Positions 19,515-44,313 of a stretch of DNA of 64,000 nucleotides are shown in pieces; position 1 is the stretch's first letter, and each line of letters begins with the position of its first letter. Source of the stretch: a virus; the IMG/VR virus record IMGVR_UViG_3300045988_117464, positions 62,738 to 126,737 of that record, one strand, 5' to 3'. The notes under the pieces are model-generated. The model saw only the letters and a list, made by a program, of their open reading frames with translations, was not told the origin of the DNA and did no database searches. A program made the position numbers and the translations under genes.

Positions 19515-19528
19515 AAATAAATTTCTCC

Positions 19529-19906: not shown

Positions 19907-20067
19907 TTTAAAAAGTTTATAACCTTTCTTTATCTTATATAAATATTATATAATATTTATTTAGAAAAATCAAGTTATGATTAATTTACCAATAGTTCTT
20001 CCGCATAAGGAAGAGTTTCAATCCATTTACAGAACTCTCTCCATTCGGGAAGACGATGGTTTTTTCT

Positions 20068-20643: not shown

Positions 20644-20645
20644 AA

Positions 20646-23168: not shown

Positions 23169-23224
23169 TACTTAAAAAAGAAGGGGCAGATATTAAATAT
23201 CTACCCCTTAATAATCTATATTAA

Positions 23225-23494
23225 TTACTCCGCGTCAGGAGCGTCGGGATCAAAGCTCATGCCAGCGGGAGTGAGAGAGAGGAACTTGACCTGCTTATGA
23301 GTGCCATCCTCAAGCTCAACCTCAGCGGGAGTGCGAAGACCGAGACCCTTGCGCTGAATAGCACTGGTAAAGATACCATCAACAGAACGCTTCTCGAGAC
23401 CGAGAGCCTCAGCAACATCAGCAGCGGTAACTTCCTGACCGTTAACTTCCTTCAAATAATTAAGAACCTTCTTAGAATTTTCCTTCATAGCCAT
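23225..23494 (-). CDS. Small protein with atypically GC-rich codon usage (possible abundant DNA-binding protein)
   Basis: Local GC is far above the window average (ctc/gcg/acc codons). AADVAEALGLEKRSVDGIFTSAIQRKGLG is HTH-like. Confidence 0.45.
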   Translation of the reverse strand: MAMKENSKKVLNYLKEVNGQEVTAADVAEALGLEKRSVDGIFTSAIQRKGLGLRTPAEVELEDGTHKQVKFLSLTPAGMSFDPDAPDAE

Positions 23495-23585
23495 AATAAT
23501 AATAATCTCCTTTAAATAATTAAATATTTTTTTTATTTTTTTCTTTTAACCTTTAGGTTATGTAAATATTATAGTAAAAAATTTT

Positions 23586-23786
23586 TTATTTGTCAAGAAT
23601 TTTTCCAAGAATTTCTTGAACCATTTCATCAATGGTTGTAATATCATCAAGACTGTGAACGTGGCTCGAAAGTTCCATAATTTGATTCTGGGCTTTACGA
23701 ACAGCTTGCGGGTCTTCACTTGTCTGAACGACTAATTCTGCATTAGCAATTTTTTTTGCGAGATTCTTGAGTTCTTTTGTTTTCAT
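23586..23786 (-). CDS. Hypothetical small protein
   Basis: ORF with promoter motifs upstream. Confidence 0.4.
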   Translation of the reverse strand: MKTKELKNLAKKIANAELVVQTSEDPQAVRKAQNQIMELSSHVHSLDDITTIDEMVQEILGKILDK

Positions 23787-23837
23787 TTAAAAATTTTCTT
23801 CCTTAATTTTTACAAGTTTATTTTACAAAAAATTTTT

Positions 23838-25049: not shown

Positions 25050-25140
25050 TGATTTATTTCCGTCCTATCTTTAAATATATTATAGAAAAATTTTTTAAAA
25101 AAATCAAGTAAAGGAGGATATAATCCTCCTTTATAAGATT

Positions 25141-27516: not shown

Positions 27517-28009
27517 ATTTTTTAAGGACCTCCTCAGCTGTAATTTTTCCAGTAGCGAGACCGTCTGCTAACTCATTCCACAAATGGCCATCATGCCCGG
27601 AAATTTTTCTCAAATCAATTTTGACTTCTTTCTCTGTTTCATAATAATCTTTAATTAAATCAAGATTTTCTGGAACTTTTTTATTGGATTTAATCCAATT
27701 ATTACGCTCCCATCCATACATCCAATTGGTAAAAGTATTTACACAATAGGCTGAATCACTATATACAGTAGGGATATCATTAGTCCATTCTCCATTATCA
27801 TGTTTACCATATTTTTTCAACACATGAAGAATAGCTTTAATTTCTTCTCTGTTATTTGTAGTATCTTCAAAAGCGTTTATTTGACAAGCATCAATTACAA
27901 CACCATTCTCAGGATTGCTATCATATTCAACAACAACAAACCCATAACCACCGCTATTATTTTTTTGTCCGTTTTTGCGACATGAACCGTCAGTATAAAT
28001 CGCAATCAT
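27485..28009 (-). CDS. rnhA: Ribonuclease H
   Basis: IYTDGSC...GYGFVV...EEIKAIL...YSDSAYCVNTFTNW...ISGHDGHLWNELADGLA. Confidence 0.75.
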   Translation of the reverse strand: MIAIYTDGSCRKNGQKNNSGGYGFVVVEYDSNPENGVVIDACQINAFEDTTNNREEIKAILHVLKKYGKHDNGEWTNDIPTVYSDSAYCVNTFTNWMYGWERNNWIKSNKKVPENLDLIKDYYETEKEVKIDLRKISGHDGHLWNELADGLATGKITAEEVLKKYGRDSKNSNS

Positions 28010-28283
28010 ATGATGGCCTCCCTAAAAATTCATTTTCTCCACAATCAATATGAAAAGAAGTATTAGTAAAAATAGTAATTTTATCAATAAAATAATCGTT
28101 AATAATATTTACTTTATTGTCTGGAAATAACTTTTGTAATTGCTCGTGGAGGTCTCTACAAGTAATTATATCAATATCTTTATTAACATGAGCTAAAATA
28201 ACGTCATCTTTACGAATAGGAATTATTTCAATAGGCGTTCCTTTATAATTACTTACATATCCCTTATCAGTTTTATACATCAA
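27990..28283 (-). CDS. Hypothetical protein
   Basis: ORF only. Confidence 0.3.
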   Translation of the reverse strand: MMYKTDKGYVSNYKGTPIEIIPIRKDDVILAHVNKDIDIITCRDLHEQLQKLFPDNKVNIINDYFIDKITIFTNTSFHIDCGENEFLGRPSYDCDLY

Positions 28284-28457
28284 TATTGGCCCTTTCTGCG
28301 TTTAACTCAATGAAAGATTTACGAGGGCCGACTGATTCCCCCATCAAATCCATAAATGTTTTATTTACAAGATTCATATCATCCATTGTAATTTGTTTTA
28401 AGGTGCGAGTTTCTGGATTCATAACCAATTCCATCTCATGGGTGTCCATTTCGCCTA
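28284..28457 (-). CDS. gyrB: Type II topoisomerase subunit B (GyrB-like), exon 2 (C-terminus)
   Basis: |LGEMDTHEMELVMNPETRTLKQITMDDMNLVNKTFMDLMGESVGPRKSFIELNAERANIDV matches GyrB GLGEMNPEQLWETTMDPE...LMGDxVEPRRxFIEENA..ANIDI. Confidence 0.75.
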
Positions 28458-29500
28458 CATGTTTCTCCAATATTACTATTGGCACTGACTAGTTCTTCGC
28501 TCCGGCTAACGTATTAACTGCCATCATCACGCCTACCTTTTTGAAAGTATGTATCAATAATACTTCCTACTCCCCGACAAAGGGGATAGTCGATACAGGA
28601 TTAAACTACGATATTTTTCCAATTCTAATAACTCCATATATTTGTAAAAGAACCATATGTAAGTTTATTAGAATAATCTTTATAAACTTCTCTTATATTT
28701 TCTCCATTTTTACGACGCAATCTTATTTGATAAACATCTTGTTCGGTCATTTTAGAGCGTCCATTTTTACTTCCCTAATTAGAAGTATTATGTTTATGAA
28801 AATTTTTATTTTCAATTGTATATACTTCTGGCATAATATTTTTCCAAGTATCACCATTCCAAATTTTATGGAAGCCAGATTCACCAATTAAATTTTTATA
28901 ATCTTCATAAACTTCATTTTTTCTTTCTTGATTATTATAACGAGTTCTAATATTAATAACATCTTGTTTAGTTAATTTATGACTCGGATGACTTTCTTCA
29001 GTATTAAATTGCCCTCCAGGAGTCATATTATACTAATCAGGATAAGTATTATAATATTTTATATAATACTATTCTCTATCATTAAGTTCTTCGATAGAAC
29101 ATTCTTCTAATATCTCAAAAGAAAAATTATTTATTCCATATTCTAATATATCTTTATATAACTTTTTATTTTTTTCTCTATACCAGTTATATGATTTTTT
29201 ATGTTCTCTAAAACGCTATTCTATTTGTGTGCTTTGTCCTATATAAGATAAGTTATTTATTTTATTGGTTATTTTATAAATACCAATCATTTTAATTACC
29301 TCACTAATTATAAGTAAGATAATATCGTAGTTCTTCCCACGAGATTATCTCCACTAATATTTAACGCTCATTCATTTCAATTTTTCCTGAAATGTCCTAA
29401 ATATTAGCAAGACTGCCTCGTTAGCCGCCAACTGGAAAATTTTACCAATTCGCGACCCCGCCGATCAGCGGAAAAGTAGGTAAGGGCCAGACTTCCTCGT
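28458..29500 (-). mobile_element. Group I intron in gyrB, carrying a GIY-YIG homing endonuclease gene
   Basis: 5' exon ends ...atg aaa ggg t (U); intron terminal G at 28458; 3' exon starts ta ggc gaa atg. Joining gives R-M-K-G-L-G-E-M, which is exactly the GyrB consensus RYKGLGEM. Intron motifs ggcggctaacgagg / aatctcgtggga (5') and tacttcctactccccgacaaaggggatagtcgatacagg (3'). Confidence 0.7.
28607..29289 (-). CDS. GIY-YIG homing endonuclease (intron-encoded), in-frame TAGs
   Basis: MIGIYKITNKINNLSYIGQSTQIE-(TAG)-RFREHKKSY...NNFSFEILEECS; repeated KLTKQDVINIRTRY / KMTEQDVYQIRLRR linker motifs. Confidence 0.7.
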
Positions 29501-31253
29501 ACCCTTTCATACGTCCTAACTCAAAAGATCGGTTCATAGTTTTTCTGAATGTTTCAAGAGCAACGTCATCTTTAAGATATTTAATATTCGTGCCCCAAGT
29601 CGCTTTATAAAGAGGTGGAACCGCCGCGTAAATATAACCTTTTTTAATTAATTCAGGCGCAAACTTCCAAATAAATGTAAGAAACAAAATACGAATATGA
29701 CTACCATCAACATCGGCATCCGCTGTAATAATAATCTTACCATAACGTAATTTGGATTCATCTACAATTACTTTACCATCTTTAACTTCAAGGCCAAAAG
29801 CATCAATCATCGCACTAATTTCTTTATTTCCTAACGCTTTGTGCAAATCTGTCTTTAAAGTATTAAGAATTTTACCTCTTACGGGTAAAACTGCTTGTGT
29901 ATTGCGGTTGCGAGCTTCCTTAGTGGGGCCTTCTGCGGAACGACCTTCAACAATAAAAATTTCACATTCGCTCCTATTTTTACTATTGGCATCACTTAAT
30001 GTGCCGGGTAAAATAGTTCTTTTCTTCGTATCAACTTTACGAACGGTTTCTTTAGCCTTTTTCGCTTTTTCACGGGCCGCACGCGCCAACATTGCCTTAT
30101 CTACAATAGCTTTAGCATCTTTTGGATTATTGTCAAGCCAAACTTTTAAATCTTTTGATACAAGGCGTTGAACAATAGTTCTTGCTTCACTACTGGATAG
30201 AACATCTTTAGTTTGACCAGAGAAAACCGGGTCAGGCATAATAAATGAAAGAACAAGACTTAATCCTTCTTTGAGTTCTTCACCAGTGATATTAGCATCT
30301 TTCTCTTTTAAAAGACCTTTATCACGAGCGTATTCATTAATAGAAGTAGTAAGTGCTGTTCTAAAACCGGTTAGATGTGTTCCACCACTATTAGGAATTG
30401 AATTAGTATAAAGTTTATAAGTATCGCTATAGGTATCATTATACTCCATAGCAATTTTTACACCAATTCTATCTTCAATATTTTCAGTATAAAAAATTGA
30501 AGTAAGAGAAGTTTTATTGCTATTTAAATCTTTAATATAATCAAGAATACCATTTTTTGAAGTAATTTCTTCTTCTGGCTTATCAAGATAAGTAAAATGA
30601 AATACCATACCAGGAGAAAGATAAGCTAATTCTTGAATTTGTTTTCTTAAAGCATCATAATCAAGAAGAATACCTTCTTTAAAAATGCTTTCATCTGGTA
30701 AAAATTTAACCCAAGTTCCAGTCTCTTTACCGGCCCATTTTTCTTCTTGATAATCTTTTAATTTTCCTTTTTCAAAAGACGCAACAGCATGTTTACCATC
30801 GCGGAAAGATGCAACTTGAAAATAACGAGAAAGAGCGTTAGTGGCTTTAGCGCCAACGCCGTTCATACCGCCAGATGTATTATATCCAGTTTTTCCATTA
30901 CTGTCAAATTTTGCACCGGTATGAAGTTTAGTATAAATATTTACCAATGTTTCACTACCGTCTTTAGCTTTTCCAAAAGGAACACCACGTCCATTGTCGC
31001 GGATTTCAACATAACCATCTTTAGATACTGAAATATCGCAACGAGTACAATGACCATTTAAATATTCATCAACTGCGTTTGAAATAATTTCAAGAGTAAT
31101 ATGTTTAACTCCATCAGGCCCAGTAGAACCGATGAACATACCAGGTCTAAGACGAATTGCTTCCATCCCTTCTAAAGTTTTTATATCTTTAATACCATAA
31201 TCATCTTTTCCTCTTTTGAGGATAATTTCTTGACTCAATCTAAATACCTCCAA
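29501..31253 (-). CDS. gyrB: Type II topoisomerase subunit B (GyrB-like), exon 1 (ATPase plus TOPRIM)
   Basis: GHKE ATPase region (IISNAVDE...GRGVP), TOPRIM (ECEIFIVEGRSAEG, IIITADADVDGSHIR), ...YAAVPPLYK. Confidence 0.8.
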
Positions 31254-31259
31254 ATATAA

Positions 31260-31984
31260 TTTTTATGGGTATTTCTTTTACCTCTACAAACAGCGGATAT
31301 AGTAGAAGAATTTCCTCCACAAAATTGTGCTGCTAATTGTAAACTATCGAATTCTTTTATAAGATTATTATTTTTATCAAATGCTCCTACTTTACGGCTT
31401 GTTTTTATTATTCTATTAGACTAAATTTGATTAGTCTTTTTTTCAGGTTCAATAATTTGATTTTCTTCATCTAAAAATCTAAATATTCTATTTCCTGTAG
31501 TTAGTCTAATCCCATTACATACATTACTAATTTTAAATCTATCTAAATTAGTCTATTCTCCCGCTTCAGCCAATGAATTCCAAATATTTAAAATATTTTT
31601 ATCTTTATCAATTTCACAAACTTTTTTTCCATATTTTTTTCTTTTTGTATTACTCATTTTTGAAGCAATTTTAGGATCAAACATAGGACTTTCTGTATTA
31701 TCAGTCTAATTATATCCTTTTGGAAAAATACAGTCTTCTTTAATAATATAATCATGCTCTATTTTAATCATATCTTCCCAATTTTTAGCATTACTAATAA
31801 TTTCAAATGTAAAATTATCTATCCCGTATTCACGGAAATCTTGCATCAGTGGATAATTATAATGATGATCTTTCGGATTTTTAGAAGCTCCAATATGATG
31901 TCTCCAACGTCTATGCACATCAATCGAAGAACCAATATATATTTTATTATTTATTTTATTAGTAATTTTATAAATTTGATACAT
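31260..31984 (-). CDS. Free-standing GIY-YIG homing endonuclease (3 in-frame TAGs)
   Basis: MYQIYKITNKINNKIYIGSSIDVHRRWRHH...NFTFEIISNA; sits between a gene and gyrB with no intron motifs nearby. Confidence 0.65.
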
Positions 31985-32058
31985 AGAAATTCACAACCTT
32001 TCTATTATATCTTAAAATTTATTTAGATATATTTTTTACATTCCTGCCCCATTCCTGG

Positions 32059-32283
32059 TCAACCGCACTCATATTCGTTATAAACAATTTTTTCAAAATC
32101 TTCTTTAGAGATTTCGGGCAAAGTATATAAATAACCATTAGCTTTATCATTATAATAAAATAAAAAACTATTATAATCATGATTTTCTAATGCTTTTTCG
32201 ATACTATTAATTACTGTTGGAATATAATCTCTAGAAAGATGATCATACCAATAATAAACGATACCTTCAGTTGTCGTTGCCAT
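32059..32283 (-). CDS. Hypothetical protein
   Basis: ORF only. Confidence 0.3.
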   Translation of the reverse strand: MATTTEGIVYYWYDHLSRDYIPTVINSIEKALENHDYNSFLFYYNDKANGYLYTLPEISKEDFEKIVYNEYECG

Positions 32284-32878
32284 TAGATTCCTCCTTAACT
32301 TTAGGAATAATTTGATTTAATTTATAATCATAAGCTAAATCATTATATAACTTTTTTAAATATTTCTTATTAAGTAATTCTTCAATAGGAGTTCCATTTT
32401 TCCACCTAAGAAAAATTACATTAACAAAAGATTTAACAACTGGGTGCATCAAAACTTCTTCGCGCTTTTTGAGCCACCAGTTTAATTCACTTTCTGCATT
32501 AAATTTATCTTTCATATATGCGGCTCCCGCACCCAAATAATCACAAAGAAGTTCAACGGTATCTTCATAGGGCATTAATAGTGCTTTTGGATGGCCTACT
32601 CCGCCATCTTTAATATCGTCAATCCAATACTCCCAATGATGAGTATTGTGGCCTTTATGATGTTGCCATGCTTTACTAAATCCATTAACATCTTTACAAT
32701 TATCAATTGGAGAACGATTACCGGTCCAATAGTGAGCGGATTCAATGAATTCAATAGGAGTAAACTTGGATAAATCATGCTTAATACCGCGCCAAGGGAT
32801 ACCAGCCATTTTACAATATTTAAATACATACTTTTTATGTGTTAAAACAGTATTTAAATGATTAATATAATTACTCAT
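32267..32878 (-). CDS. Hypothetical His-rich protein (HHKGHNTHHWEYW)
   Basis: ORF with a canonical promoter at 32905-32945. Confidence 0.4.
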   Translation of the reverse strand: MSNYINHLNTVLTHKKYVFKYCKMAGIPWRGIKHDLSKFTPIEFIESAHYWTGNRSPIDNCKDVNGFSKAWQHHKGHNTHHWEYWIDDIKDGGVGHPKALLMPYEDTVELLCDYLGAGAAYMKDKFNAESELNWWLKKREEVLMHPVVKSFVNVIFLRWKNGTPIEELLNKKYLKKLYNDLAYDYKLNQIIPKVKEESNGNDN

Positions 32879-32904
32879 ATTTTTTTCTCCAATAACATAT
32901 TTCT

Positions 32905-32945
32905 TTATTTTATAAATATATTATAACAAAAATATTTTGGAAAGT
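32905..32945 (-). promoter_or_regulatory. Sigma70-like promoter (minus strand TTGACT-17-TATAAT) for gene 32267..32878
   Basis: Reverse complement of tataaatatattataacaaaaatattttggaaagtcaa. Confidence 0.5.
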
Positions 32946-32983
32946 CAAAAAATCGTGGCTTAAAATGCCGATTTAAATAAAAC

Positions 32984-33016
32984 TTGACAGAGATAAAAAA
33001 TTTTTTGTATAATATA
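32984..33016 (+). promoter_or_regulatory. Plus-strand sigma70-like promoter (TTGACA-18-TATAAT) pointing into the minus-strand lysis cassette
   Basis: aaaacTTGACAgagataaaaaattttttgTATAATatatttaag. No credible plus-strand ORF follows. Confidence 0.4.
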
Positions 33017-33087
33017 TTTAAGAGAAGCGCCCAGAGATATAAATAAAAAAATTGGATAGTATATTTTATATACTATCCAATTTTATA

Positions 33088-33483
33088 TTAAATACCATAA
33101 TCAGTATTTATAGGATCACTATTATCGCTATAATCGTCTTCGGTATAATAACTCATAGAAGTAGTTTCAGTATTATCTACTGTTGGTGTATTATTTAATT
33201 CTTCTTTATAATTATTATAAGCTTCATCAAGCTCTTTCATAACTGACGCATATTTAACGCCATCTTTGGTATTTTCAGCCATTGATTTTTTATAATAGTA
33301 TACTTGGCTCACGCCATATGCCGCCCAAGGAAGACTTGCGCTTGCGGTAAGCCAAGGTAAAGAACCCATATATCCATTATAAATACAATAAAATGCTAAA
33401 ACAATATATGCTAATGTTGAAATCCAAATTAAGGCAGACTCTTGAATTAACAGAGTTTTAGAAAATTCTCTTTTTTGTTTCAT
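33088..33483 (-). CDS. Holin-like membrane protein
   Basis: Two predicted TM helices, a charged/acidic C-terminal tail, and a position immediately downstream of the endolysin. Confidence 0.45.
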   Translation of the reverse strand: MKQKREFSKTLLIQESALIWISTLAYIVLAFYCIYNGYMGSLPWLTASASLPWAAYGVSQVYYYKKSMAENTKDGVKYASVMKELDEAYNNYKEELNNTPTVDNTETTSMSYYTEDDYSDNSDPINTDYGI

Positions 33484-33484
33484 A

Positions 33485-34273
33485 TTACACCAACCCTTTA
33501 TCTTTCATAATTCTATAAAGAACTACAATCATTTCTTCACGAGTCATAAATTTTTTATACATTTTACGATTTAAATTATCGCCTTTAATATATCCTTTAC
33601 TTTCAGCCCAAGTTCTTTCCGTATCAGACCAAGAACTTGCATTTTTTTCGGCTTGTTGATTTAAATAAACTTCCATCATCTCATTAAATTTATCCTAAGT
33701 CATATCTTCATCCTCCTCATTAATATTTATATTATCACCAATTTTTTGTTTAAATAACTACCATTGGTAATCGCCACTTGTTCTATAATAGCTATTCATG
33801 TCAGTTCCGCATAATGGACGAGGGCATAATTTACCAGTCACATCATAGTGGCGAATAACGCGGTTCGCTGGTATATTGTATTTCTACATTAATTGCTTTA
33901 CTAATTGTACCGTATTTTCTAATGCTCTTGGATCAAAATACCAATCAGTATCACTGGCTACAATATTAGATTTATTTATTTTACAGGGTCTTACTTCAAT
34001 TCCAATAGAATTGGCATTTCTACATTCAGGATGCTTATATCCTTTTCTTGTGCCACAGTGCCAAGCAATATCTTCATCTTTAACGCTACGATAAATAATA
34101 TCTTTTTCATCAACACAATAATGAGCTGATGATTTAGCGACAGGATTTTTAAAATAATTACTAATATTTTTTGCAGTCCCTAAAGAACCAAAATAATGTA
34201 TTACAATATATTTTATTTTTCTATTATTACCTTTTTGATAATTAGATGTTGTTAAATTATCTACAATTTTCAT
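33485..34273 (-). CDS. Endolysin: N-acetylmuramoyl-L-alanine amidase (Amidase_2/PGRP) plus C-terminal SLH-like wall-binding domain; in-frame TAG at 33884
   Basis: IVIHYFGS...AHYCVDEKDII...WHCG...ANSIGIEV (amidase_2); C-terminal SWSDTERTWAESKGYIKGDN...TREEMIVVLYR (SLH-like). ORFs 33884..34273 and 33485..33679 are co-frame. Confidence 0.65.
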
Positions 34274-34299
34274 ATCTTCACCTTTTCCTATAAATTGAT

Positions 34300-34787
34300 C
34301 ATATATTTCAACTCCATAATATAATCTCTACTATTGGATTTTTAAACTCTAATCTTTTGGTCGTTCAAACTATGTTAAAACTATATTTGAAGCAGTCTAT
34401 ATATCTTTACAATTTATTAAAGTATTCCAAACGGTAGGATAATATGTAGAAAGTTGATAAATTAAAAATTCAAGTTGTGTATTTAAGTTTCCTATTGAAG
34501 TATTTTTCTTTTTTGTAAAATCATATAATTGTTTTTTAAGACTCCAATAGGTCCATTGAGCTAAACCATATCCAGCTTTATCATAAATGAAATTAGTATA
34601 TTTACCATTATCTACTTGTTTTGTATACTATTCATCATTTAATCCAAGTGTCTTTTCAAAACTATTTTGAAGATTTTTTGGATTAAAATTTGATTCAGCT
34701 TTTAAGTTTCCCATTAGCCCGGCTGTTCCATAAGGATTTTTTATTTGTTTATATAAATAATTCCAAGCTATTTCAATATTAGTCATA
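34300..34787 (-). CDS. Phage lysozyme-like protein (AGLMGNLKAESNFNP family), several in-frame TAGs
   Basis: MTNIEIAWNYLYKQIKNPYGTAGLMGNLKAESNFNPKNLQNSFEK...; no ORF in the track because of TAG codons. Confidence 0.4.
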
Positions 34788-34848
34788 TTATCCTCCTTTC
34801 TATAAAATAAAAAAGAAAGAGAAGAAGTAAATCTTCTCTTTCTTATAA

Positions 34849-36111
34849 TTACATATGTTCAGCTAATGCCGCAATTTTAGAACGATGAATTTGTTTTAAT
34901 TCAATTTCGCCATATACATCTGATCCTCTAAATACTTTAGAAGCACGACGCATACCATTATTGGCTCCGGCAAAAGCGATATCATCAACTTGAGTTTTAT
35001 CATCGCCATCAATGATACAAATACCATCTTCACCGATACGTTGTAAAGTCAATTTCATAAGCGAAATATCCATATTTTGTGCTTCAGAAATATAAATACC
35101 CGCTTTCATTCCAGTAGTATCATAACCGCGGATATCACTTAATGGTAAAAGAACTAATTGTTCATTTTCAATCATGCGCTCAACGGCTAAGCGACCACCA
35201 AATTTACTAATTAAAAGATTGCCGATTTGACTATCAAGTAATTTTTCATCTCTAGTGCCAGGATAAAAACCTAATTTTGCGGAATTTTTAGTGGCAATTG
35301 TATTACAAAATACAATGATTTTATCAATACGTCCACGTTCAAATTGATTCATCAAAAAGGCTAAACTTAAATAAGTTTTACCTGAACCCGCGGGGCCACG
35401 AACCATAGTAATAGTATTATTAATAAGACTATCTGCGAATAAAGTTTGATAAGGGTCATCTTTCATAGGTTTTACTTTTCCAAATTGAGTAGAATCAAAA
35501 TTACCAAATGAAATAGGACGATAACCATCACCAGTATAACATACTTTATCAACGATATTATTATCTTTATCTTTTATAATTAAATATTCATTAATATGTA
35601 AATTATAAACATTTTCATATTGGTTAGAATAGAAATCAGCCATTTCCGCGTTTGACATTGTAATTTCTACATATCCCTTATATTCATCAATTAATTCTTC
35701 ATCTATGCTTTGGATATGATCTTTGTCAAAGAAAAGATTTGCCATCGCTTTTAATGATAAATCATTAGTGATAAATATAGTATTTGGATGAGCTAATTTA
35801 AATTCAATTGCGGTAGATAAAATTTTACTATCATCAGTAATTGGAAGGTTAGAATCTTCAATTATTTTTAATCCGTCTAATTTAAATAGTTGGATAATAT
35901 AATTATCAGGGTTTTTATTCAATTTATGTAATACTTTACGAGCTGAATATTTAACATCAGCATCTTTATTTGATGATGTTTTTATATTTTCTAATTCTTT
36001 TAAAGTAATAGAAGATATAACAGGTGTATATTCTTCCTCTTGGAGGAATGTATCAACCGCCATCAACAAACTACAAGTATCATAAAATTTATACATCTTC
36101 GTACTCATCAT
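34849..36111 (-). CDS. phoH: PhoH2-like ATPase (N-terminal PIN domain plus PhoH)
   Basis: PIN-like N-terminus, then VRGPAGSGKTYLSLA (Walker A) and the PhoH C-terminal region. Confidence 0.7.
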   Translation of the reverse strand: MMSTKMYKFYDTCSLLMAVDTFLQEEEYTPVISSITLKELENIKTSSNKDADVKYSARKVLHKLNKNPDNYIIQLFKLDGLKIIEDSNLPITDDSKILSTAIEFKLAHPNTIFITNDLSLKAMANLFFDKDHIQSIDEELIDEYKGYVEITMSNAEMADFYSNQYENVYNLHINEYLIIKDKDNNIVDKVCYTGDGYRPISFGNFDSTQFGKVKPMKDDPYQTLFADSLINNTITMVRGPAGSGKTYLSLAFLMNQFERGRIDKIIVFCNTIATKNSAKLGFYPGTRDEKLLDSQIGNLLISKFGGRLAVERMIENEQLVLLPLSDIRGYDTTGMKAGIYISEAQNMDISLMKLTLQRIGEDGICIIDGDDKTQVDDIAFAGANNGMRRASKVFRGSDVYGEIELKQIHRSKIAALAEHM

Positions 36112-36402
36112 CTTCTTCCTCTTCTATGTTTGGTATAGCAAATCCGACTGCGTGAACTGAAGTTTTTGTATCGGTTGCTAATTTTTCGATTTGGGAATTA
36201 TACTCTGCTATTTTTAGAGTTAATTTTCCCTTTACCAATTCGAGAAAAGTTGTCAATAAACTAACTAAACTATCTCCTATTGGGTATAAAAATGCGATAA
36301 ATATTATTCCGAATATAAATGTTAAAATAAATATTCACCCTTTCATTAGGGATTTGAAGATTTTACCTCTTAACATTTATAAAAATTTATATGCTTTTAT
36401 TT

Positions 36403-36840
36403 TTAATTCTTGGCCTCATTACGATGTTTACGAATACTCTGGTAAAATTTATCTTTTTCTTTTATGATATAATTTAATTCTTCTTTAGCATTTTTAATAG
36501 AATCATTTACATAACTAATATCTTCTTGTCTTTGGCGGATTTGTCGTTGAAGCATTTTATTTTCATAAGATTTAGGATTAAAATATTTGCTTCTATTCAT
36601 TGAATAATATAATTGATTTAAAGCTCCAAGTTGAATTTTTAATTCTTTTTTATAGGCTTGTAAAACTTTAATATAAGCTCGTTTATAAGCAAAATTACAT
36701 CCAGTTTTTTCATTTGCCATATCCATATCGTCAGGGTGGCATTTAGCAATACCATAAATAATATTACCATCTTTATCTTCAATTAAACAAGAAGCTTCGC
36801 CTGATTCAGGGTTATAACTAAATAAAGGTTCTTTTTTCAA
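36403..36840 (-). CDS. Hypothetical coiled-coil protein
   Basis: ORF only. Confidence 0.3.
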   Translation of the reverse strand: MKKEPLFSYNPESGEASCLIEDKDGNIIYGIAKCHPDDMDMANEKTGCNFAYKRAYIKVLQAYKKELKIQLGALNQLYYSMNRSKYFNPKSYENKMLQRQIRQRQEDISYVNDSIKNAKEELNYIIKEKDKFYQSIRKHRNEAKN

Positions 36841-36942
36841 AGTAGTAGAACTCCTTTCTATCTATTTCTATAAATATATTAACATAAAAATTATTAAAAA
36901 GCAAAAAAATAAAGGCGAAAGCATTATACTTTCGCCTTTATT

Positions 36943-38236
36943 TTAATTTAATAATTCATCTATCCATTCTTGCTTCATATTATTTGGAAATTCTTCGTCT
37001 ATATTATGTTTTTTATAATATTTATTCCAAAATTCAATATTGGCAAGAGCGCGAGCTTTATGCATAGGACAAATATAAGTAACTCTTTTATTAAGAATTC
37101 CAGTATCTTGATAATTATATGCTTGACACCAAGCACAACCATTAGCAATAGGACATTCACGACATTCGTCAGAAGATTGAGTATAAGAATTAATTGCTTT
37201 TAATTCTTTTGTTAATTGTTTTTGTTTTTCTGTTGTTGCTATTTCATTTTTATTTACATTTCCTATAATAAGAGGTGGGACGGAATCGCCCAGAGCATCT
37301 TCCATATATCGTAAGCAGGGGTATAAATTACCAGTATAATTCATAGCAATCATACTTCCATTTCCGCCGCACCAATTCTATAGATCATCTTTATTAGTCC
37401 AATCTTTTGGTCTAAATAATTTCAAATCTGGATATTCAAAAAATGAAATATATACATCTTCTTCTAAATTATTATCAAGGAGATATTGTCCTAATTCTTG
37501 TAATTGTTTATAGTAAATTTTGGCGTGTTCTAAAGTCCAACCTTTTTCAAAAATTACATTCCCTAATATAGAAGTAAATCCTATGTCTAAAAGAGCTTTT
37601 ACGGCATCATTTAAATACATAACATTATCAGGAGATAAAGTAATTTTTGAACAAGGATATTCTCCGGTTTTTTTACGCCAATCTTTTATTGCTTTTACAA
37701 CAATATCATAACTACCTGACCCATCAGGGAATTTTCTACAAGCATCATGCAATTCTTTATTACCATCAATACTAATAGAAACAGATAGCCATTGCTTATA
37801 TTTATCTAAAAATTTTTGTACTTTTGGATCAAAATATAATGTTCCATTAGTACAAATTAAAAATCTTGTAAAATAAATTAATGGACTGTTCATTTCAATT
37901 AATTTAGAAATTGTATAATCCATTACTTTATCTATTAAATCTAAATTTAAAAAAGGTTCTCCACCAATAAAATCAAAGACTAAACCTATAATATTATCTG
38001 GGTCAAAGTAATCATTTTTCTAAGGATTTACTATTAACATATCAATATATTTTTTAGCTGTTTCAAAATCCATTAAATGATTTTTTTTACAAGTTTGATA
38101 ACAATAACTACATCTTAAATTACAAGCGTCAGTGACCTGTAAAGTTATATCAAAAACTTTATCGCTTTCATTTTTCCATAGTTCTGGATATAATCTTTGA
38201 ATTGTATCACTATACTATTCGAATTTACGTCTCATT
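36943..38236 (-). CDS. Radical SAM enzyme with C-terminal SPASM domain (peptide/protein-modifying maturase-like); in-frame TAGs at 37378 and about 38215
   Basis: CNLRCSYCY (CxxxCxxC) near the N-terminus; SPASM-like CRECPIANGCAWCQA in the C-terminal ORF 36943..37353, which is co-frame with 37378..37923 across a TAG. Confidence 0.6.
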
Positions 38237-38540
38237 CAGCATTATCATTAATTGTTATTGTAATAATTTTTGCTTGGAAGTCAATACTCCAATAGGCATT
38301 ATTACCATATTTTTCTAAATCATAATATTTTCCAACTTTATTTCTAATTTTATCATATTCAATAAATTTTTCAACGTATTCTTGATGATATCTTTTATAA
38401 TTATCAGTATCCATATTATTAAATGAAGTGCTATTCATCATATAAGTAATAATACTTTGACGAGCAAGAAGATCTTGATAAGCTCGTTCTAATTTATCAT
38501 TTAATTCTACATTATTAGCATTTACTGTAATTGTTTTCAT
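38232..38540 (-). CDS. Hypothetical protein between the Cys-rich gene and the radical SAM gene
   Basis: ORF only. Confidence 0.3.
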   Translation of the reverse strand: MKTITVNANNVELNDKLERAYQDLLARQSIITYMMNSTSFNNMDTDNYKRYHQEYVEKFIEYDKIRNKVGKYYDLEKYGNNAYWSIDFQAKIITITINDNAE

Positions 38541-38662
38541 TATTTTTCTCCTTTTTATCTTATAAATTAACTTTTTAAAATTTTAGAATATAAAGACTTT
38601 AAAGCAGTAATTGCTTTCTGCATTTCAGATTTAGTACAGACATTTCCATTATAAGAAGTGTT

Positions 38663-39272
38663 CTACATTTTAGAAATATTTGTGAATATTTCATTTTTTA
38701 AGTTTGTATTAACTTTACTGTTAGAAGAAACTTTTGTAGGTAAAGTACTATATCCACGCCTAGATAATTCTTTATTTAACATAGTATAAATATTTGCAAT
38801 ATCAGCAGCATATAAAACGATTCTTAAATTAATAGAATTATAAAGATTTACATTAGCTGAAGTGGTACATCCATTATCGCAGCCTCCCGTACAATTGCCA
38901 GTACAAGCAGAACAGTCATGCCTACAACTAGCACTACATCCAACACATCCGCCAGAACAGCTTCCACTACAATCGGTGCGACAACTAGCACTACATCCAA
39001 CACATCCGCCAGAACAGCTTCCACTACAATCGATACTGCAAGAACCGCCACATCCAGAGCAACCTACATCACATCCGCCTGAACAACTATTACTACAAAC
39101 TCCTCCGCATCCAGAGCAATTTCCATCACAGTCTCCTCTACAACTTCCTTGGCATTGGCTAGTGCCGCAAGTTTCACACATAGAACAATTACCGCCACAA
39201 CCATGGTCACATCCATTACTACAGCTTATAAAGCAAGTTCCGACACAACCCTATGTAGTACAATTAGCCATA
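38663..39272 (-). CDS. Cysteine-rich tandem-repeat protein (CSGSCSGGCVGCSASC repeats), upstream of the radical SAM/SPASM enzyme
   Basis: About 130 aa of CxxC/CxxxC repeats with a 57-nt DNA period (38870-39070), then a Cys-free C-terminal tail; the N-terminus extends across a TAG to an ATG at about 39272. Confidence 0.5.
38870..39070 (-). repeat. Tandem repeats of about 57 nt encoding the Cys-rich repeat units
   Basis: Near-identical blocks tgtagtgctagttgtcg[c/g]ac[c/a]gattgtagtggaagctgttctggcggatgtgttggatg repeated; this also creates spurious overlapping ORFs on both strands. Confidence 0.7.
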
Positions 39273-39299
39273 TGTTATGTCCTCCTTACATTAAATTTT

Positions 39300-39737
39300 T
39301 TACAATATTTTCTAATTCATCTAATTTGTTAAATAATTGATATTTAATAAATATGCTACTTAATAAAGAATAATATCTTAAAGAATTATTTTCTTTTATT
39401 TTATAATTCTTAAAGAATTCTATATTATTTTCTTTTGTGTCTGAATCTAACTTTACTTCTAAAAATAGATAATCAATAGCAGTTAAAACTTGAGTATTAT
39501 TTTTTAGATAACTAATTTTATTAATGAAATCTTGTAATTTGTCAATCTATTCTAAATTTCTAAGATTTTCAAAATTTTGAATATTATAAAAAATTATTGC
39601 AATAGTTTCTTGATATTCGATATCAGAAATTTCATTTAACTATAAAATCAATTCATTGTCATCAAATAAAATACCATTTTCTAACTCTTTAGAAACTTTA
39701 ATTTTTAAAAGTAAAACATCTTTTTCGGATAGAGACA
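39300..39737 (-). CDS. Hypothetical protein (2 in-frame TAGs)
   Basis: MNKMSLSEKDVLLLKIKVSKELENGILFDD...; absent from the ORF track because of TAG codons. Confidence 0.3.
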
Positions 39738-39922
39738 TTTTATTCATCCTTTCTTTAATATAAATTATAGCAAAATTTTTTTGATTTTGCAAATTTTATT
39801 TACCTAATTTATTTATAAATACTGGGTTTATTTTTAATGAAAAATGACCATTTAACATTTTATTAAAAAAATTTCTATGGGCGTGAGTGATTGGAACTAC
39901 GGCCGATCGCGTTGATCAGGGA

Positions 39923-39963
39923 TAAAAAAATAGACACTATGAAATAAATCATAGTGTCTATTT
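39923..39963 (-). terminator. Rho-independent terminator after the flotillin-like gene
   Basis: Inverted repeat atagacactatg/catagtgtctat followed by a T-run on the minus strand. Confidence 0.6.
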
Positions 39964-39966
39964 AAA

Positions 39967-41352
39967 TTACTTATTCAATGCTTTTGTAAGCATCTCTTTA
40001 ATGTCGATGCCATTTTCAGACATTGCTTCGATGACCTGGTTTGCGGAACCCATAACATCCTTTACAAGACGAGCAGAGTTTCCATCACCATACTGGACGA
40101 TCTTATCCACATTGGTAAGAGGGGCGGCCGCGTTTGCCACGATTTGAGGCATTGCATTAAAATACATTTCAATGATAGAGGCTTCACCCATCTTCTTCTG
40201 TGCTTCTGCTTTCTTGTCGATTGCTGTAGCTTCAGCTTCACCAACGGCCGCAATACCAGCAGCTTTCTGCTCGGCTGCGAACTTTTCCGCTTCAGCGCGA
40301 GCACGCATAGCTTTTGCTTCCTGCTCGATCTCATAAGCCTTAGCTTCAGCATCCTTCTGACGACGAATCAGGTCTGCTTCAGCAGCTTTTTCCGCAGCAT
40401 ACTTATCAGCATCAGCCTGCTTACGAACCAATGCAGTCAGTTCGTATTCCTTAAGCTCGATTTCCTTCTGCTTCAATTCAGCTTCACGCTCAGCCTTTGC
40501 GATATTCGCATTAGTTGCGGCAACATCCTTGAGCTTACGCTGATTTTCAGACTCAATGCCGGCGGCTGCCTCTGCCTGAGCTTTCTTAGTATCAGCTTCC
40601 TGCTTCAACTGAGCCTGCTTGATAGCAAGATCGTTATTGCGGATTGCGATTTCCTCAGCGGCCTTAACCTTAGCGTCATTAGACTGCTTAGCATTTTCCG
40701 CACGAGCGACCTCAATCTCACGTTCCGCATTGGACTTAGCGATCGCCGCGTTCTTGCTAATCTGAGCAACATTATCAATACCGAGGTTAGTGATAACATC
40801 ATTATCATCAGAGAAGTTCTGAACGTTAAAGGTAATCAACTCAAGACCATAACGTGCCAGATCAGGAACTGCGTTCTCCTGAACTTTCTCGCTAAACAGC
40901 TTACGATCGCTAACCATATCAGTCAACTTCATCTGACCGACGATCTCACGAATATTGCCCTCAAGAAGGTCGTTAATTTTACGAGAAATTTCATCACAAC
41001 CTACATTAAGGAAGTTCTGAGCGGCGAGCGCAATCATTTCAGGATCTCTACCTACACGAACGGAAACGGTAGAATCAACACGAACGTTAATGTATTCGGC
41101 AGTAGGAACCGCAGATCCAGTCTTTACATCAATTTGAATAGCTCCGAGAGCAAGCTTATCCAAACGTTCGAAGAAAGGAATCTTCAAGCCAGCTTTACCA
41201 ACAAGAATTCGAGGTTTCTTATGGACACCACTGATGATATAAGCCATATCAGGCGGAGCTTTTACATAACCATTGAGGAAAATGAAAACTACCAGTAGCG
41301 CAATAAGAACTACAGGAATTGCCGGAAGGATAAATGAAATAATAGCGGGCAT
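39967..41352 (-). CDS. Flotillin / SPFH (band-7) domain protein
   Basis: N-terminal TM, SPFH domain (VKTGSAVPTAEYINVRVDSTVSVRV...) and a long A/E/K-rich coiled-coil (flotillin/YqiK-like). Higher-GC codon usage. Confidence 0.7.
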   Translation of the reverse strand: MPAIISFILPAIPVVLIALLVVFIFLNGYVKAPPDMAYIISGVHKKPRILVGKAGLKIPFFERLDKLALGAIQIDVKTGSAVPTAEYINVRVDSTVSVRVGRDPEMIALAAQNFLNVGCDEISRKINDLLEGNIREIVGQMKLTDMVSDRKLFSEKVQENAVPDLARYGLELITFNVQNFSDDNDVITNLGIDNVAQISKNAAIAKSNAEREIEVARAENAKQSNDAKVKAAEEIAIRNNDLAIKQAQLKQEADTKKAQAEAAAGIESENQRKLKDVAATNANIAKAEREAELKQKEIELKEYELTALVRKQADADKYAAEKAAEADLIRRQKDAEAKAYEIEQEAKAMRARAEAEKFAAEQKAAGIAAVGEAEATAIDKKAEAQKKMGEASIIEMYFNAMPQIVANAAAPLTNVDKIVQYGDGNSARLVKDVMGSANQVIEAMSENGIDIKEMLTKALNK

Positions 41353-41378
41353 AAATAATTCTCCTTATTTATTTAATT

Positions 41379-41642
41379 TTAAATTTTATACTTATATTTG
41401 AATAATGCTTCAATAGCATCATCAATCGAATTATAGTATCCATTATGTTCAAATTCTCCATCTTCATCCCATAAGAAAGAGATTTCTACACCTAATGGAC
41501 CTTGTTCCAATTTTTCTTTTACTTCTTTGTAAATTGCTTCTTCCATTTGTCTTGTTATTAATTTTTCCCAATCTTCATAGGACATTTTTCCAGTAATGAG
41601 TTTTTTTGTTAAATCATTACCTTTATAATCATAAAGTGCCAT
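41379..41642 (-). CDS. Hypothetical protein
   Basis: ORF only. Confidence 0.3.
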   Translation of the reverse strand: MALYDYKGNDLTKKLITGKMSYEDWEKLITRQMEEAIYKEVKEKLEQGPLGVEISFLWDEDGEFEHNGYYNSIDDAIEALFKYKYKI

Positions 41643-41652
41643 TTAGTTTTCC

Positions 41653-42198
41653 TTATTCATCAAGAAATGCTTTACATTCCTCAACTTTGGCTTTCATAGC
41701 ATCAATGATTACATCAAGATTAATGGGGTAGCCATGGTGAGAATCAACACCTACATGATACATATAAGGTCGATCTTCAAAGAAATTAGTGGTTTGATGA
41801 GTATGACCGTAAAGATTCAAAGTCATTTGATGAAGATTTTCTCTTTCAAGATTACCAGTCATACAAGGGAAATGGGTCATAAAGAAATGGTATTTACGAT
41901 AATTTAGCATAATCGCCCAATCCATTTCAACAACATTAGGCAAATCCGCATAAAGCTTCTGCCGAGTTGCTGTATCATGGTTGCCAAATACAATATGAAA
42001 TTTGCCCTTAAGACGTTTAACATATTCAATATTAGAAGGCTCTCCAAGCATTAGATCACCAAGAATATAAACGTCATCTTCATCAGAAATGATGCTATTC
42101 CATTTCTCGACGTAATCTTCATTCATTTCTTTAATTGAAGAATAACCACGAGCTTTCCAAATAAATTCACGGTCATGGCTAACCAAAGTGCATATCAC
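41653..42198 (-). CDS. Calcineurin-like metallophosphoesterase
   Basis: GDLMLGE...GNHD...HTHQ motifs. Confidence 0.55.
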   Translation of the reverse strand: MICTLVSHDREFIWKARGYSSIKEMNEDYVEKWNSIISDEDDVYILGDLMLGEPSNIEYVKRLKGKFHIVFGNHDTATRQKLYADLPNVVEMDWAIMLNYRKYHFFMTHFPCMTGNLERENLHQMTLNLYGHTHQTTNFFEDRPYMYHVGVDSHHGYPINLDVIIDAMKAKVEECKAFLDE

Positions 42199-42223
42199 TT
42201 GTTAAAAAGATAGCACCCATATT

Positions 42224-42960
42224 TTAATCACCTATCCTTTCCCATTTTCGTCCACCAACTTTGCTATATCTACTTGATCCAGCGAGACATTTACTTAAAC
42301 TACTTCGATCTACTTTTTCTTTTCGAGCAGCTTCGCTAATACTATCATAGTAAACAATATCATTTGGGTTATTTATATTAATTCCTTTTATTTTGGTACG
42401 TCTTTTTCGAGTTTTTGCTTTTGGAATTATAACATTATTATTTTCATCCAATGATCGAAAAATTAAATTATTACAACTATGAGCTTCTCCATCACATATT
42501 TTTTTTATTGTCGTAGCTCTTTTATCGCCATCCCACCCTTGAGCTCTTGCAGCTTCATGATAAGAACTATAAATAGAAATAATTTCATTCTATTCATTTA
42601 CTAAAGCACATTTTTTACTAATTTTTTTTATATGCTTTTGAGTATTCTCAAGAGTGATAATATTAGATTTAGTATTTTCAGTCTAATTATATCCATTAGG
42701 ACATAAAGAATTATATTTTAAAATCATTTGATGCTCATAAGTTTCCATCGAATTAACATCATTAAAATCATTTCTTAAAATTTCAAAAGTAAAATTTTCT
42801 ACTCCATATTTTCTAATAGCACACTATAAAGGATAAAAATAATTTGAATTATTTAGATTAAAAGCATTATTAATGTGCTATTTCCATCTAGTTTCAACAC
42901 GAGTACTTGAGCCTATATAAGATTTTTTATTAATCTAATTAGTAATTTTATATACAACAT
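42224..42960 (-). CDS. Free-standing GIY-YIG homing endonuclease (5 in-frame TAGs)
   Basis: MNVVYKITN-(TAG)-INKKSYIGSSTRVETRWK-(TAG)-HINNAF...ENFTFEILRN; C-terminal HTH-like region. Confidence 0.65.
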
Positions 42961-43032
42961 TCATTTATTAATCACTCCTTCATATATTAATGAGAAAATA
43001 ATTAATAAAATTAACACTTCTTGACCCACAAT

Positions 43033-43566
43033 TTAGACATGAGATTGCCATGTATGAATCACTTCTCCTTTTTCGTTAACCTCTTGAATAAGGTTATATT
43101 TAATATATTCTTTAAAAGTGGGAGGAGTAAAAGAATTTGCCATACTCCGAATTACTTCTTCTGGAACTTGCGCTCGACCATCACGCTGTTTATTGCGCTC
43201 AATGCAAACTTCAACAGGAACATTAAAATAAATAACATTCACATTAAGATTTGCATATCCTTTTGCGTTAATTGCTTTAAGAAGTTTCTTGCGGGAGCCG
43301 GGTCCAAGATGCGTGGCATCCGCATACACATCATCATAGTCTCTTAAAGAAAGGGTGATTGCTTCAACAAAAGCATGCCATACACTTTCTTCTTTGGCGA
43401 AATAGCTTTCATCATCATTTAACATTTGAAAACGAAGAGCATCACGAGAAACAACACAACCACATTGAGGCCAACGATTTTTAAGGAACGTGCTTTTGCC
43501 CGATGCTGGCACTCCGGACATAATCCAAAGATTCTTTTGCTTCATCTTTATACACTCCATTCTCAA
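43033..43566 (-). CDS. pnk: Polynucleotide 5'-kinase (T4 Pnk kinase-domain-like P-loop kinase)
   Basis: LWIMSGVPASGKSTFLKNR...SRD...VPEEVIRSM parallels the T4 Pnk kinase domain (GCPGSGKST...NRDD...VPIDVLRSM). Confidence 0.55.
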   Translation of the reverse strand: MRMECIKMKQKNLWIMSGVPASGKSTFLKNRWPQCGCVVSRDALRFQMLNDDESYFAKEESVWHAFVEAITLSLRDYDDVYADATHLGPGSRKKLLKAINAKGYANLNVNVIYFNVPVEVCIERNKQRDGRAQVPEEVIRSMANSFTPPTFKEYIKYNLIQEVNEKGEVIHTWQSHV

Positions 43567-43756
43567 AATTTTCTTTAAATTCTTCTACTTCTTCTGGAGT
43601 TCTACACTCAATATGATTTACTTCTTCTTTACAGTAAATACAATATAACTTTTTACGATGAAATTTACCATGTTGAAAACTTACTCGACGAGATAAAGGA
43701 ATTCCTTTTCGTCCACAATTCATACAATAAAAATCATGGTTTTCATAAGATGCCAT
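43481..43756 (-). CDS. Zinc-ribbon protein
   Basis: CMNCGRKG...CIYCKEEV. Confidence 0.3.
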   Translation of the reverse strand: MASYENHDFYCMNCGRKGIPLSRRVSFQHGKFHRKKLYCIYCKEEVNHIECRTPEEVEEFKENFENGVYKDEAKESLDYVRSASIGQKHVP

Positions 43757-44023
43757 TTGAATTACTCCTTTGAGCGAGAAGGAACCGCGATATTAATAAA
43801 AATCTTAATGACAAACATTTGCCAATAAGTAATGCTTGGAAAGCAAAACCAAGGAATAAGAGCGGTATTCCAAATAAATAACATAATAGCTACTTCAATA
43901 AACATAAGAGCTACACCCGCGATTGCCATAGAAATATCATCATAATCGTCCATTTTTTATCAATTCCTTTCTTAACTTTCTATAAATATTATAACTTATT
44001 TTTTATAAAAATCAATAAAGAAT

Positions 44024-44302
44024 TTATACTTCCTTTAAACGATTTTCACATTCCTCAGCATCATACTCAATAGTTAAATTTGTAGCATCAAGATAGCCAC
44101 TATCATAATAAAGTATATCATGTTTAACAGTAGCATTTTCATAAATTTCTGCTTCACCAGTATCTTTTACAATTTCAAAAAGATCGCATAAAAATCTACA
44201 AGCAGATTCAATAGTGTCAAATTCAAGAGCTTTATCATCCCAACAGAGTGGATTAACACCCTCTTTTGTTTCATAAATATGATATTTCATACCTCTAACC
44301 AT
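44024..44302 (-). CDS. Hypothetical protein
   Basis: ORF with an upstream promoter motif. Confidence 0.3.
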   Translation of the reverse strand: MVRGMKYHIYETKEGVNPLCWDDKALEFDTIESACRFLCDLFEIVKDTGEAEIYENATVKHDILYYDSGYLDATNLTIEYDAEECENRLKEV

Positions 44303-44313
44303 TATTTTTCTCC

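Follow-up and report, generated by a model that had tools for sequence, protein, structure and literature searches.

A predicted CXXX-repeat maturation cassette with a permuted target protein in a TAG-recoded phage

Introduction

Among the described systems, the one closest to the locus treated here is the CXXX-repeat system, which comprises a radical S-adenosylmethionine (SAM) peptide maturase (TIGR04115), an associated protein (TIGR04116) and a target protein (PF27846, 'tSAM_targ_Cxxx_rpt'), and which has been defined by comparative genomics only. Its models presumably go back to Haft and Basu 2011. Here we describe a stretch of 64,000 nucleotides (nt) of viral DNA, positions 62,738 to 126,737 of the IMG/VR record IMGVR_UViG_3300045988_117464 (hereafter the window), whose minus strand encodes a Cys-repeat protein, a small open reading frame (ORF) and a radical SAM enzyme with a SPASM-type cluster. 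We consider it likely that they form an intact three-component CXXX-repeat maturation cassette in a TAG-recoded phage, with an uncleaved, cross-linked product and a role at the tail or in host contact.

Related chemistry is known from several SPASM enzymes. QhpD installs several Cys-to-Asp/Glu thioethers in a polypeptide that is left uncut as a subunit of a protein rather than being processed to a peptide, and the core of the SCIFF peptides contains consecutive CX3 units rich in Ser and Thr. The enzyme of the freyrasin ranthipeptide from Paenibacillus polymyxa, PapB, is described in three published studies as acting on a substrate with repeated C-X3 units, where it forms thioethers between Cys sulfur and side-chain carbon, and as tolerating substrate variation with a weak dependence on the leader (PMC10739248, PMC9413430, PMC12715619).

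A sequence-only reading of the window had proposed a cluster resembling those of peptides that are ribosomally synthesised and then post-translationally modified (RiPPs). As far as the peptide-maturase family is concerned, this proposal holds; it missed the TAG recoding, which alters the boundaries of both genes, the small ORF as a third component, and the fact that the family had already been defined.

Results

The radical SAM enzyme and its family

Against the NCBIfam model TIGR04115 (radical SAM peptide maturase, CXXX-repeat target family), the enzyme scores 405.8 bits at E 2e-121, aligned over profile positions 4-359 of 359; this exceeds the curated cutoff of 350 bits and makes it a member of that family. 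The next-best families each remain under their own cutoff: PapB at 194.3 bits (NF047865, cutoff 340), SCIFF at 133.8 (TIGR03974, cutoff 425), CcpM at 129, QhpD at 106 (cutoff 453) and anSME at 77.9 (TIGR03942, cutoff 349). NrdG and QueE are absent from its hidden Markov model (HMM) matches, so that the peptide-modifying function supposed for the enzyme from its letters is borne out at the level of the family.

Both Cys clusters that had been noticed, the CxxxCxxC motif (CNLRCSYCY) and a C-terminal SPASM-type cluster, stand: the radical SAM Cys (C38, C42 and C45) and all seven SPASM Cys are invariant in an alignment of 20 homologous sequences. Pfam Radical_SAM is matched at E 1.4e-10, and Pfam SPASM at 20.8 bits, marginally under its gathering score of 21.5. 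The nearest solved structure is that of the SCIFF thioether synthase CteB (5wgg, E 9e-22); as the alignment starts at CteB residue 97, the enzyme has no fused N-terminal RiPP recognition element (RRE). More than 7,000 homologues exist in a large protein collection, some of them, in Anaerosporobacter and Caproicibacterium, carrying the TIGR04115 family name.

The Cys-repeat target protein

The Cys-rich protein of about 200 amino acids (aa) that had been placed at 38663..39272 is a real gene with other boundaries. Its ATG lies at 39271, with an AAGGAGG ribosome-binding site 9 nt upstream, and position 38663 belongs to an in-frame TAG; with TAG as sense, the ORF runs on to a TAA at 38567 and encodes 234 aa. 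The repeats of about 130 aa and their 57-nt period were seen correctly, as residues 4-135 hold 35 Cys and Tandem Repeats Finder returns the same period. Between these Cys the spacing is CX3C in 25 cases, CX2C in seven and CX4C in two, and the intervening residues are mostly G, S, T, D and N. The number of repeats differs among sister phages, whose targets measure 234-253 aa.

Compared with three relatives of equal length, the gene shows 117-120 nucleotide differences, 71-75 of them at third codon positions, and the codon changes comprise 56-59 synonymous and 34-36 non-synonymous ones, with all 36 Cys codons kept (36/36). On account of the third-position bias, the synonymous excess and the conservation of the Cys codons, the target is not taken for chance low complexity, and the substitutions indicate purifying selection across its 234 codons. 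A plus-strand ORF antisense to the Cys repeats (38862..39332, 156 aa, rich in Pro, Gln and Leu) and other alternative-frame ORFs were set aside as by-products of the composition of the repeats.

A permuted conserved domain

A Cys-repeat ORF stands beside the enzyme in nearly all of 169 related loci. Reduced to 72 enzyme lineages at 85% identity, this family yields 79 Cys-repeat ORFs. In 54 of them the repeats come after a non-Cys N-terminal region that measures 80 aa or more (type A), and in eight a non-Cys region of this minimum length follows the repeats; six of the eight, together with the protein of the window, carry the conserved domain there (type B).

The Cys-free tail of the window protein, described as such by the sequence-only reading, corresponds to this conserved helical domain of about 100 aa. 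In a profile-profile comparison with hhalign, the type-B C-terminal alignment (window protein included) matches the type-A N-terminal alignment with a probability of 97% (E 1e-10, 83 columns), and with the HMM of the type-A domain, matches to type-B relatives span some 100 residues and have E values of 1e-13 to 1e-10. The domain bears the signature L-K-x-x-[VI]-x-x-E-x-x-R-R, of which the window protein has its version at the C-terminus (..LNKELSRRGY..). In either layout the domain borders on a conserved Cys motif: in type A the domain is followed by ..SSSCRGACTGLC.., and in type B it is preceded by ..CSACTGNCTGxCDNGC.. sequences. The motif C[ST]ACTG[NT]C..CDN.C occurs in 6/7 type-B proteins compared, that of the window included. 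The conserved domain of the target is therefore, by prediction, permuted from the N- to the C-terminus, a displacement of a recognition-type domain that would explain the atypical orientation and lack of an obvious leader remarked on earlier.

For one type-A member, AlphaFold2 gives a helical domain with a predicted local distance difference test (pLDDT) score of about 80-90 and a repeat without a defined fold. Comparison of the domain with known tail proteins and RiPP leaders gave no specific match, and when the C-terminal domain alone served as query in a word-indexed search, the only matches were three fragments from close relatives.

Across the family, 71% of the Cys spacings are CX3C and 27% CX2C, Ser or Thr occupies about half of the first X positions, and the targets contain 11-104 Cys per protein in up to 549 aa, apart from one 917-aa fusion. 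The latter (L089:12002-14755) has a 350-aa ladder and then about 560 residues with a hydrophobic C-terminal part. An abundant group of phages of about 60 kb adds a C-terminal domain of about 190 aa without a Pfam match (L134:7984-9633), before which some sister Cys-repeat ORFs end. One family member bears a twin-arginine signal peptide (L002:2222-2746).

The small associated protein

An HMM built from 39 other loci matches the small ORF at E 1.5e-16 (55 bits), as the sole match among the 423 ORFs of the window, and the corresponding protein family is present in 157/169 related loci. The small ORF is thus the conserved partner of the CXXX-repeat cassette. AlphaFold2 models the protein with a pLDDT of 91.8 as a strand, two long helices and a beta-hairpin. 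In a representative library it has 60 homologues at E <=0.001, which mostly stand alone and measure about 90-120 aa, and an identical protein is indexed in 546 blocks of a public metagenome collection, the three shown being ENA metagenome assemblies, one of them labelled human gut. In a second TAG-recoded contig of about 196 kb (L013), two tandem small associated genes (9410-9997) precede the enzyme, and a target of 346 aa lies downstream on the opposite strand (11948-12988).

One unit of consecutive genes

The cassette genes follow one another on the same strand (Table 1), an order also seen in related loci, and the TGA of the small ORF overlaps the ATG of the radical SAM gene in an ATGA, so that they are read as one unit with a predicted translationally coupled stop/start overlap. 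A promoter-like site and terminators around the unit accord with the co-transcription, with a small ORF in between, that had been suggested; such promoter-like sites are no more frequent in the region than in shuffled sequence, and this one is a consensus match only. In composition, integrity and family membership the cassette is complete.

The first gene of the unit encodes a protein of 150 aa that has no Pfam, NCBIfam or PHROG match and whose jackhmmer relatives occur only in this phage clade; it was considered as a fourth component of the cassette and rejected because of this confinement.

Table 1. Coordinates, in the window, of the four-gene unit and of the features within and around it
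Feature	Coordinates	Strand	Description
Terminator-like hairpin upstream of the unit	39928..39963	-	intrinsic type, 15-pair stem and T-run; closes the SPFH/flotillin-like gene upstream and sets the unit apart
Promoter-like site	39764..39793	-	TTGCAA, 17 nt, TATAAT with upstream TG; 10/12 consensus matches; ahead of the four-gene unit
First gene of the unit	39286..39738	-	150 aa, 2 in-frame TAG
CXXX-repeat target protein	38567..39271	-	234 aa, TAG (Gln) at codons 7 and 203
Cys-repeat region	38867..39262	-	residues 4-135, 35 Cys; ends in conserved junction motif CSACTGNCTGGCDNGC
57-nt tandem DNA repeat	38924..39056	-	Tandem Repeats Finder: 2.3 copies at 88%; 38924..39032 = 1.9 copies, 100% identical
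Conserved non-Cys domain of about 100 aa	38570..38866	-	the family's 'leader-like' helical domain, C-terminal here
CXXX-repeat system associated protein	38232..38540	-	102 aa, no TAG
Radical SAM/SPASM peptide maturase	36943..38235	-	430 aa, TAG (Gln) at codons 7, 72 and 286
CxxxCxxC radical SAM cluster motif	38101..38124	-	DACNLRCSYCY, C38-x3-C42-x2-C45; read from sequence
SPASM-type auxiliary-cluster Cys motif	37069..37371	-	C289-x12-G-x4-C307 ... C358-x2-C361-x5-C367-x2-C370 ... C389
Terminator-like hairpin after the unit	36906..36944	-	intrinsic type, 18 pairs and T-run; directly after the radical SAM stop codon

TAG recoding

The window has a G+C content of 32%, with nearly all genes on the minus strand. 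When TAG is read as sense, the coverage by long ORFs rises from 73% to 87% of the window. Within 1..43600, more than 40 minus-strand ORFs have TAG in frame (nine in the endolysin, eight in the ORF 21297..22205, six in RecJ), and there are none from about 44 to 60 kb (44000..60400). Every stop that interrupts the radical SAM and Cys-rich genes is a TAG. The three in the enzyme (38217..38215, 38022..38020 and 37380..37378) correspond to Gln in a relative of 90% identity, and Gln is the majority residue at two of these positions (15/20 and 12/20 family sequences); the second TAG of the Cys-rich gene is a CAA/CAG Gln codon in sister phages. Moreover, in public records of the same phage the genes called independently here are of 150, 234, 102 and 430 aa. 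Given the gain in coverage, the Gln at TAG positions in relatives and the public calls of the 234-, 102- and 430-aa genes, the phage is predicted to translate TAG as glutamine (genetic code 15). No suppressor tRNA is present in the window, which contains only three tRNAs and no other Rfam family. The idea that in-frame TAG marks late expression was dropped, since replication genes such as RecJ also contain it.

Distribution and genomic context of the family

Related phages carry the same genes: a scan of viral contigs returned more than 547 cassette loci. A scan with one genome per species gave 75 loci; the carriers identified to genus or family belong to Clostridia and other Bacillota, Eggerthellaceae, a Treponemataceae and a Methanobrevibacter bin, presumably all strict anaerobes, and the family is found mainly in phages and prophages of such organisms. 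Cultured carriers include the Caproicibacterium strain of record CP135996, which has two cassettes, Neglectibacter timonensis SN17, Desnuesiella massiliensis mt10, Anaerobacterium chartisolvens DSM 27016 and Eubacterium pyruvativorans i6.

For the most part the cassette sits in phage tail modules, usually with baseplate or tail-fibre genes on one side and lysis genes on the other. Two Caproicibacterium prophages have it directly after Baseplate_J and tail-fibre genes and before a GH25 lysin, and a gut-phage contig has it between tail-fibre-like genes. In a P2-like module (L170), Baseplate_J and Tail_P2_I are followed by a 349-aa gene and then by the small ORF, the enzyme and the target, after which come three more fibre-like genes, the reverse transcriptase of a diversity-generating retroelement (DGR) and holin. 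A census of the three nearest genes per side at 42 non-redundant loci counted Baseplate_J (9), Mu Gp48 (8), Phage_tail_fib (7), Tail_P2_I (3) and collagen (3) upstream, and amidases, holins and GH25 (4 each) downstream; among the neighbour families listed there was no C39 protease or ABC exporter. Counting from baseplate seeds alone, a Baseplate_J homologue lies within 10 kb in 25/45 non-redundant lineages outside this phage clade, four type-B loci included. As for the reverse transcriptase of DGR type in L170 (14616-15713), it lies at most 5 kb from the cassette, and RVT_1 recurs beside other loci.

Searching a phage collection at the DNA level with the whole locus gave no match. A protein search of the GenBank-derived phage collection found two unannotated gut-phage contigs at 36-40% identity, and no close homologue in a cultured or annotated phage of that collection; SPN3US-like and Erwinia jumbo phages have distant radical SAM genes (about 26% identity) that were not counted in the same family. 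Literature searches on the CXXX-repeat family, TIGR04115, phage-encoded SPASM RiPPs, and ranthipeptides together with phages found nothing relevant.

Surroundings of the cassette in the window

The neighbours of the cassette in the window are an endolysin, a PIN-PhoH protein, an SPFH protein, topoisomerase subunits, a ligase and replication genes. Directly upstream, and with its own terminator, lies an SPFH/Band-7 flotillin-like gene (39967..41352, minus strand) whose product of 461 aa has an N-terminal membrane segment and a long coiled coil rich in Ala, Lys and Glu. Just downstream, at 33485..34786 and 34849..36111 (minus strand), are the two-domain endolysin (Phage_lysozyme2 and Amidase_2, the one with nine TAG codons) and the PIN-PhoH fusion. 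A GyrB-like topoisomerase appears to be split on the minus strand into a main part (29442..31253), a GIY-YIG gene (28601..29290) and a DNA_gyraseB_C piece (28273..28527); further GIY-YIG genes lie at 42224..42964 and 31235..31984, the ORF 21297..22205 is similar to them, and the insert at 31235..31984 is absent from one sister contig (L174). Farther away, all on the minus strand, are an RNA ligase (47618..48997), an 832-aa protein without a PHROG match whose C-terminal third is coiled-coil (53696..56194) and, adjoining it, a gene matching PHROG 850 'RNA-binding protein' at E 3e-134 (56311..57876).

The three tRNAs of the window, also on the minus strand, are tRNA-Cys(GCA), tRNA-Lys(UUU) and tRNA-Gly(UCC), at 60370..60446, 60890..60964 and 62012..62087. 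Of about 327 Cys codons in long minus-strand ORFs, 36 belong to the 234-aa Cys-rich gene alone, and its Gly codons are GGA in 20/33 cases, against a window mean of 36%. In view of this share of the Cys codons and of the preference for GGA, the phage tRNA-Cys/Lys/Gly may serve the Cys-rich gene.

Discussion

Proposed mechanism and role

By analogy with characterised maturases, the most likely mechanism would be that thioether cross-links are installed one after another in a protein that stays uncleaved. The helical domain, either alone or together with the small protein, would dock the target on the maturase and so replace the missing fused recognition domain, and the enzyme would then start at the conserved ACTG[N/L]C junction motif and work outward. 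With SAM-derived 5'-deoxyadenosyl radicals and two auxiliary clusters, each step would join the sulfur of a Cys to a carbon in a residue nearby, forming a thioether as in PapB, CteB and QhpD, and the product could be a compact, protease-resistant cross-linked rod. Since the cassette comes with neither a protease nor an exporter, and since targets can be hundreds of residues long (500 aa or more), the product is probably an uncleaved modified protein and not a released peptide.

The gene order across the family suggests that the target could be a component of, or an accessory to, the tail or host-contact apparatus, to which we give somewhat less than an even chance; otherwise it would be a factor acting on release at lysis. 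A bolder version, tentative and in our view rather doubtful, holds that the CXXX-repeat proteins would be virion parts (tail fibres or baseplate) whose Cys ladder is thioether-stapled into a protease-proof rod by the phage radical SAM enzyme before assembly, and that in this phage the order of the domains would have been inverted and the cassette moved out of the tail module.

Several observations weigh against a maturation cassette with a role at the tail. In this phage the cassette lies outside any tail module, and its gene order lends the tail role no support. A measured chemistry for any CXXX-repeat member was not found in the literature, and Asp, the acceptor residue of PapB, makes up only 3-4% of the X positions family-wide. 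The C-terminal domain of the window protein, taken alone, gives a weak 7.4 bits against the type-A HMM, its homology being drawn from the profile-profile comparison via type-B relatives. The precomputed matches in public records list PF27846 for type-A proteins and '-' for the 234-aa protein; the local copy of Pfam is without the PF27846 model, and known members give no match there either. Finally, against NCBIfam TIGR04116 (CXXX repeat peptide modification system protein) the small ORF scores 13 bits (E 0.084), under the cutoff of 50; this match is colinear over profile positions 10-89 of 90, and other clear family members also fail or miss the model.

Alternative explanations

The window genes could also belong to a classical RiPP, in which the non-Cys domain is a leader or follower whose cleavage sets free a small, cross-linked peptide rich in Cys that serves as a bacteriocin, a signal or an anti-host factor. 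Other RiPP classes (NHLP, Nif11) do have large folded leaders, the closest enzyme families are all RiPP maturases, and the product of a phage cassette would leave with the lysate anyway. Nevertheless, we find this unlikely: neither a C39 protease nor an ABC exporter nor another processing gene belongs to the unit, and neither of the first two is among the neighbour families listed for the 42 loci; the cores, which measure 60-400 residues and hold as many as 104 Cys, far exceed those of known RiPPs; the junction of domain and repeat has no double-glycine site; and some members are fused to further domains. It is likewise quite unlikely that the ladder of CX2C and CX3C units binds Zn, Fe or Fe-S like a metallothionein or a scaffold, devoid of covalent cross-links, while the radical SAM enzyme acts otherwise. 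Dense Cys with small spacers do resemble metal-binding proteins, the repeat has no defined fold in AlphaFold2, and one relative has a twin-arginine translocation (Tat) signal, with TatC genes adjoining two loci, Tat being typical for cofactor-loaded or pre-folded exports. Yet across very divergent lineages the enzyme is found almost strictly together with the small protein and the Cys-repeat ORF, a pattern that indicates a relationship of enzyme and substrate, and the enzyme belongs to a peptide-maturase family at the equivalog level.

Another modification along the repeat, such as an oxidation of Cys or Ser to formylglycine as by anSME, or some other one that does not cross-link, seems highly improbable. 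The repeats are rich in both residues, and anSME, itself a SPASM enzyme, is among the matches of the window enzyme; its 77.9 bits, however, are far under its cutoff of 349 and below the scores of five thioether or cross-link maturase families, and the repeat is without a sulfatase-type CxPxR/SxPxR motif. Next to no credence can be given to the idea that a phage with the standard code carries the radical SAM gene and the Cys-rich gene as pseudogenes, even if that code splits the enzyme gene into three ORFs and truncates the Cys-rich gene at both ends, and even if a suppressor tRNA is missing from the window: the in-frame stops are all TAG, in over 40 ORFs of 1 to 43.6 kb, and align with Gln in relatives, purifying selection appears to extend over all 234 codons, and the same genes are conserved in many contigs of 160-197 kb.

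Significance

The cassette belongs to a large family (by the counts of enzyme homologues and viral contigs given above), whose link to phage tail modules is the most interesting lead. If true, tens of radical-SAM cross-links in an uncleaved protein would extend RiPP-type chemistry to whole proteins, and phages of anaerobes would gain a previously unrecognised way to harden an extracellular component. Should the targets be virion parts, the maturation of a virion protein by a radical SAM enzyme would be a first, and a family of 'RiPPs' would be re-assigned to phage structural biology. The gene order and the cultured lysogens that carry the cassette leave the question open to direct test.

Comparison with known systems

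With the CXXX-repeat system the locus shares the three-gene composition, an enzyme over the cutoff, the small partner directly upstream of the enzyme, and a target with Cys at every third or fourth residue and S, T or G in between. Its departures from the family model are a permuted target, accessory proteins that both fall outside the curated models, and a large TAG-recoded phage as carrier. In the known system the conserved domain is N-terminal, unlike the C-terminal one of the window target, which has no recorded Pfam match, and the associated protein is under the NCBIfam cutoff; the carrier, moreover, is a common, lytic-type human-gut phage of about 195 kb, with no tail genes adjoining the cassette.

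Among characterised enzymes, PapB represents the nearest family, at 194 bits against a cutoff of 340. Its substrate PapA is a short peptide with six CX3D motifs, whereas in the window target Asp is rare and 35 Cys are spread over 234 aa. CteB, which acts on CteA (PDB 5wgg), has the same radical SAM and SPASM architecture as the window enzyme but about 96 extra N-terminal residues, an RRE-type domain that the latter does not have; SCIFF peptides hold six Cys in about 45 aa, and against their maturase model the window enzyme reaches 134 bits, with a cutoff of 425. Against QhpD the enzyme scores far under the cutoff (106 bits against 453), and QhpC is a short subunit with three cross-links that forms part of an enzyme, whereas the target described here is a repeat protein; the pair of QhpD and QhpC offers a precedent for an uncleaved protein product.

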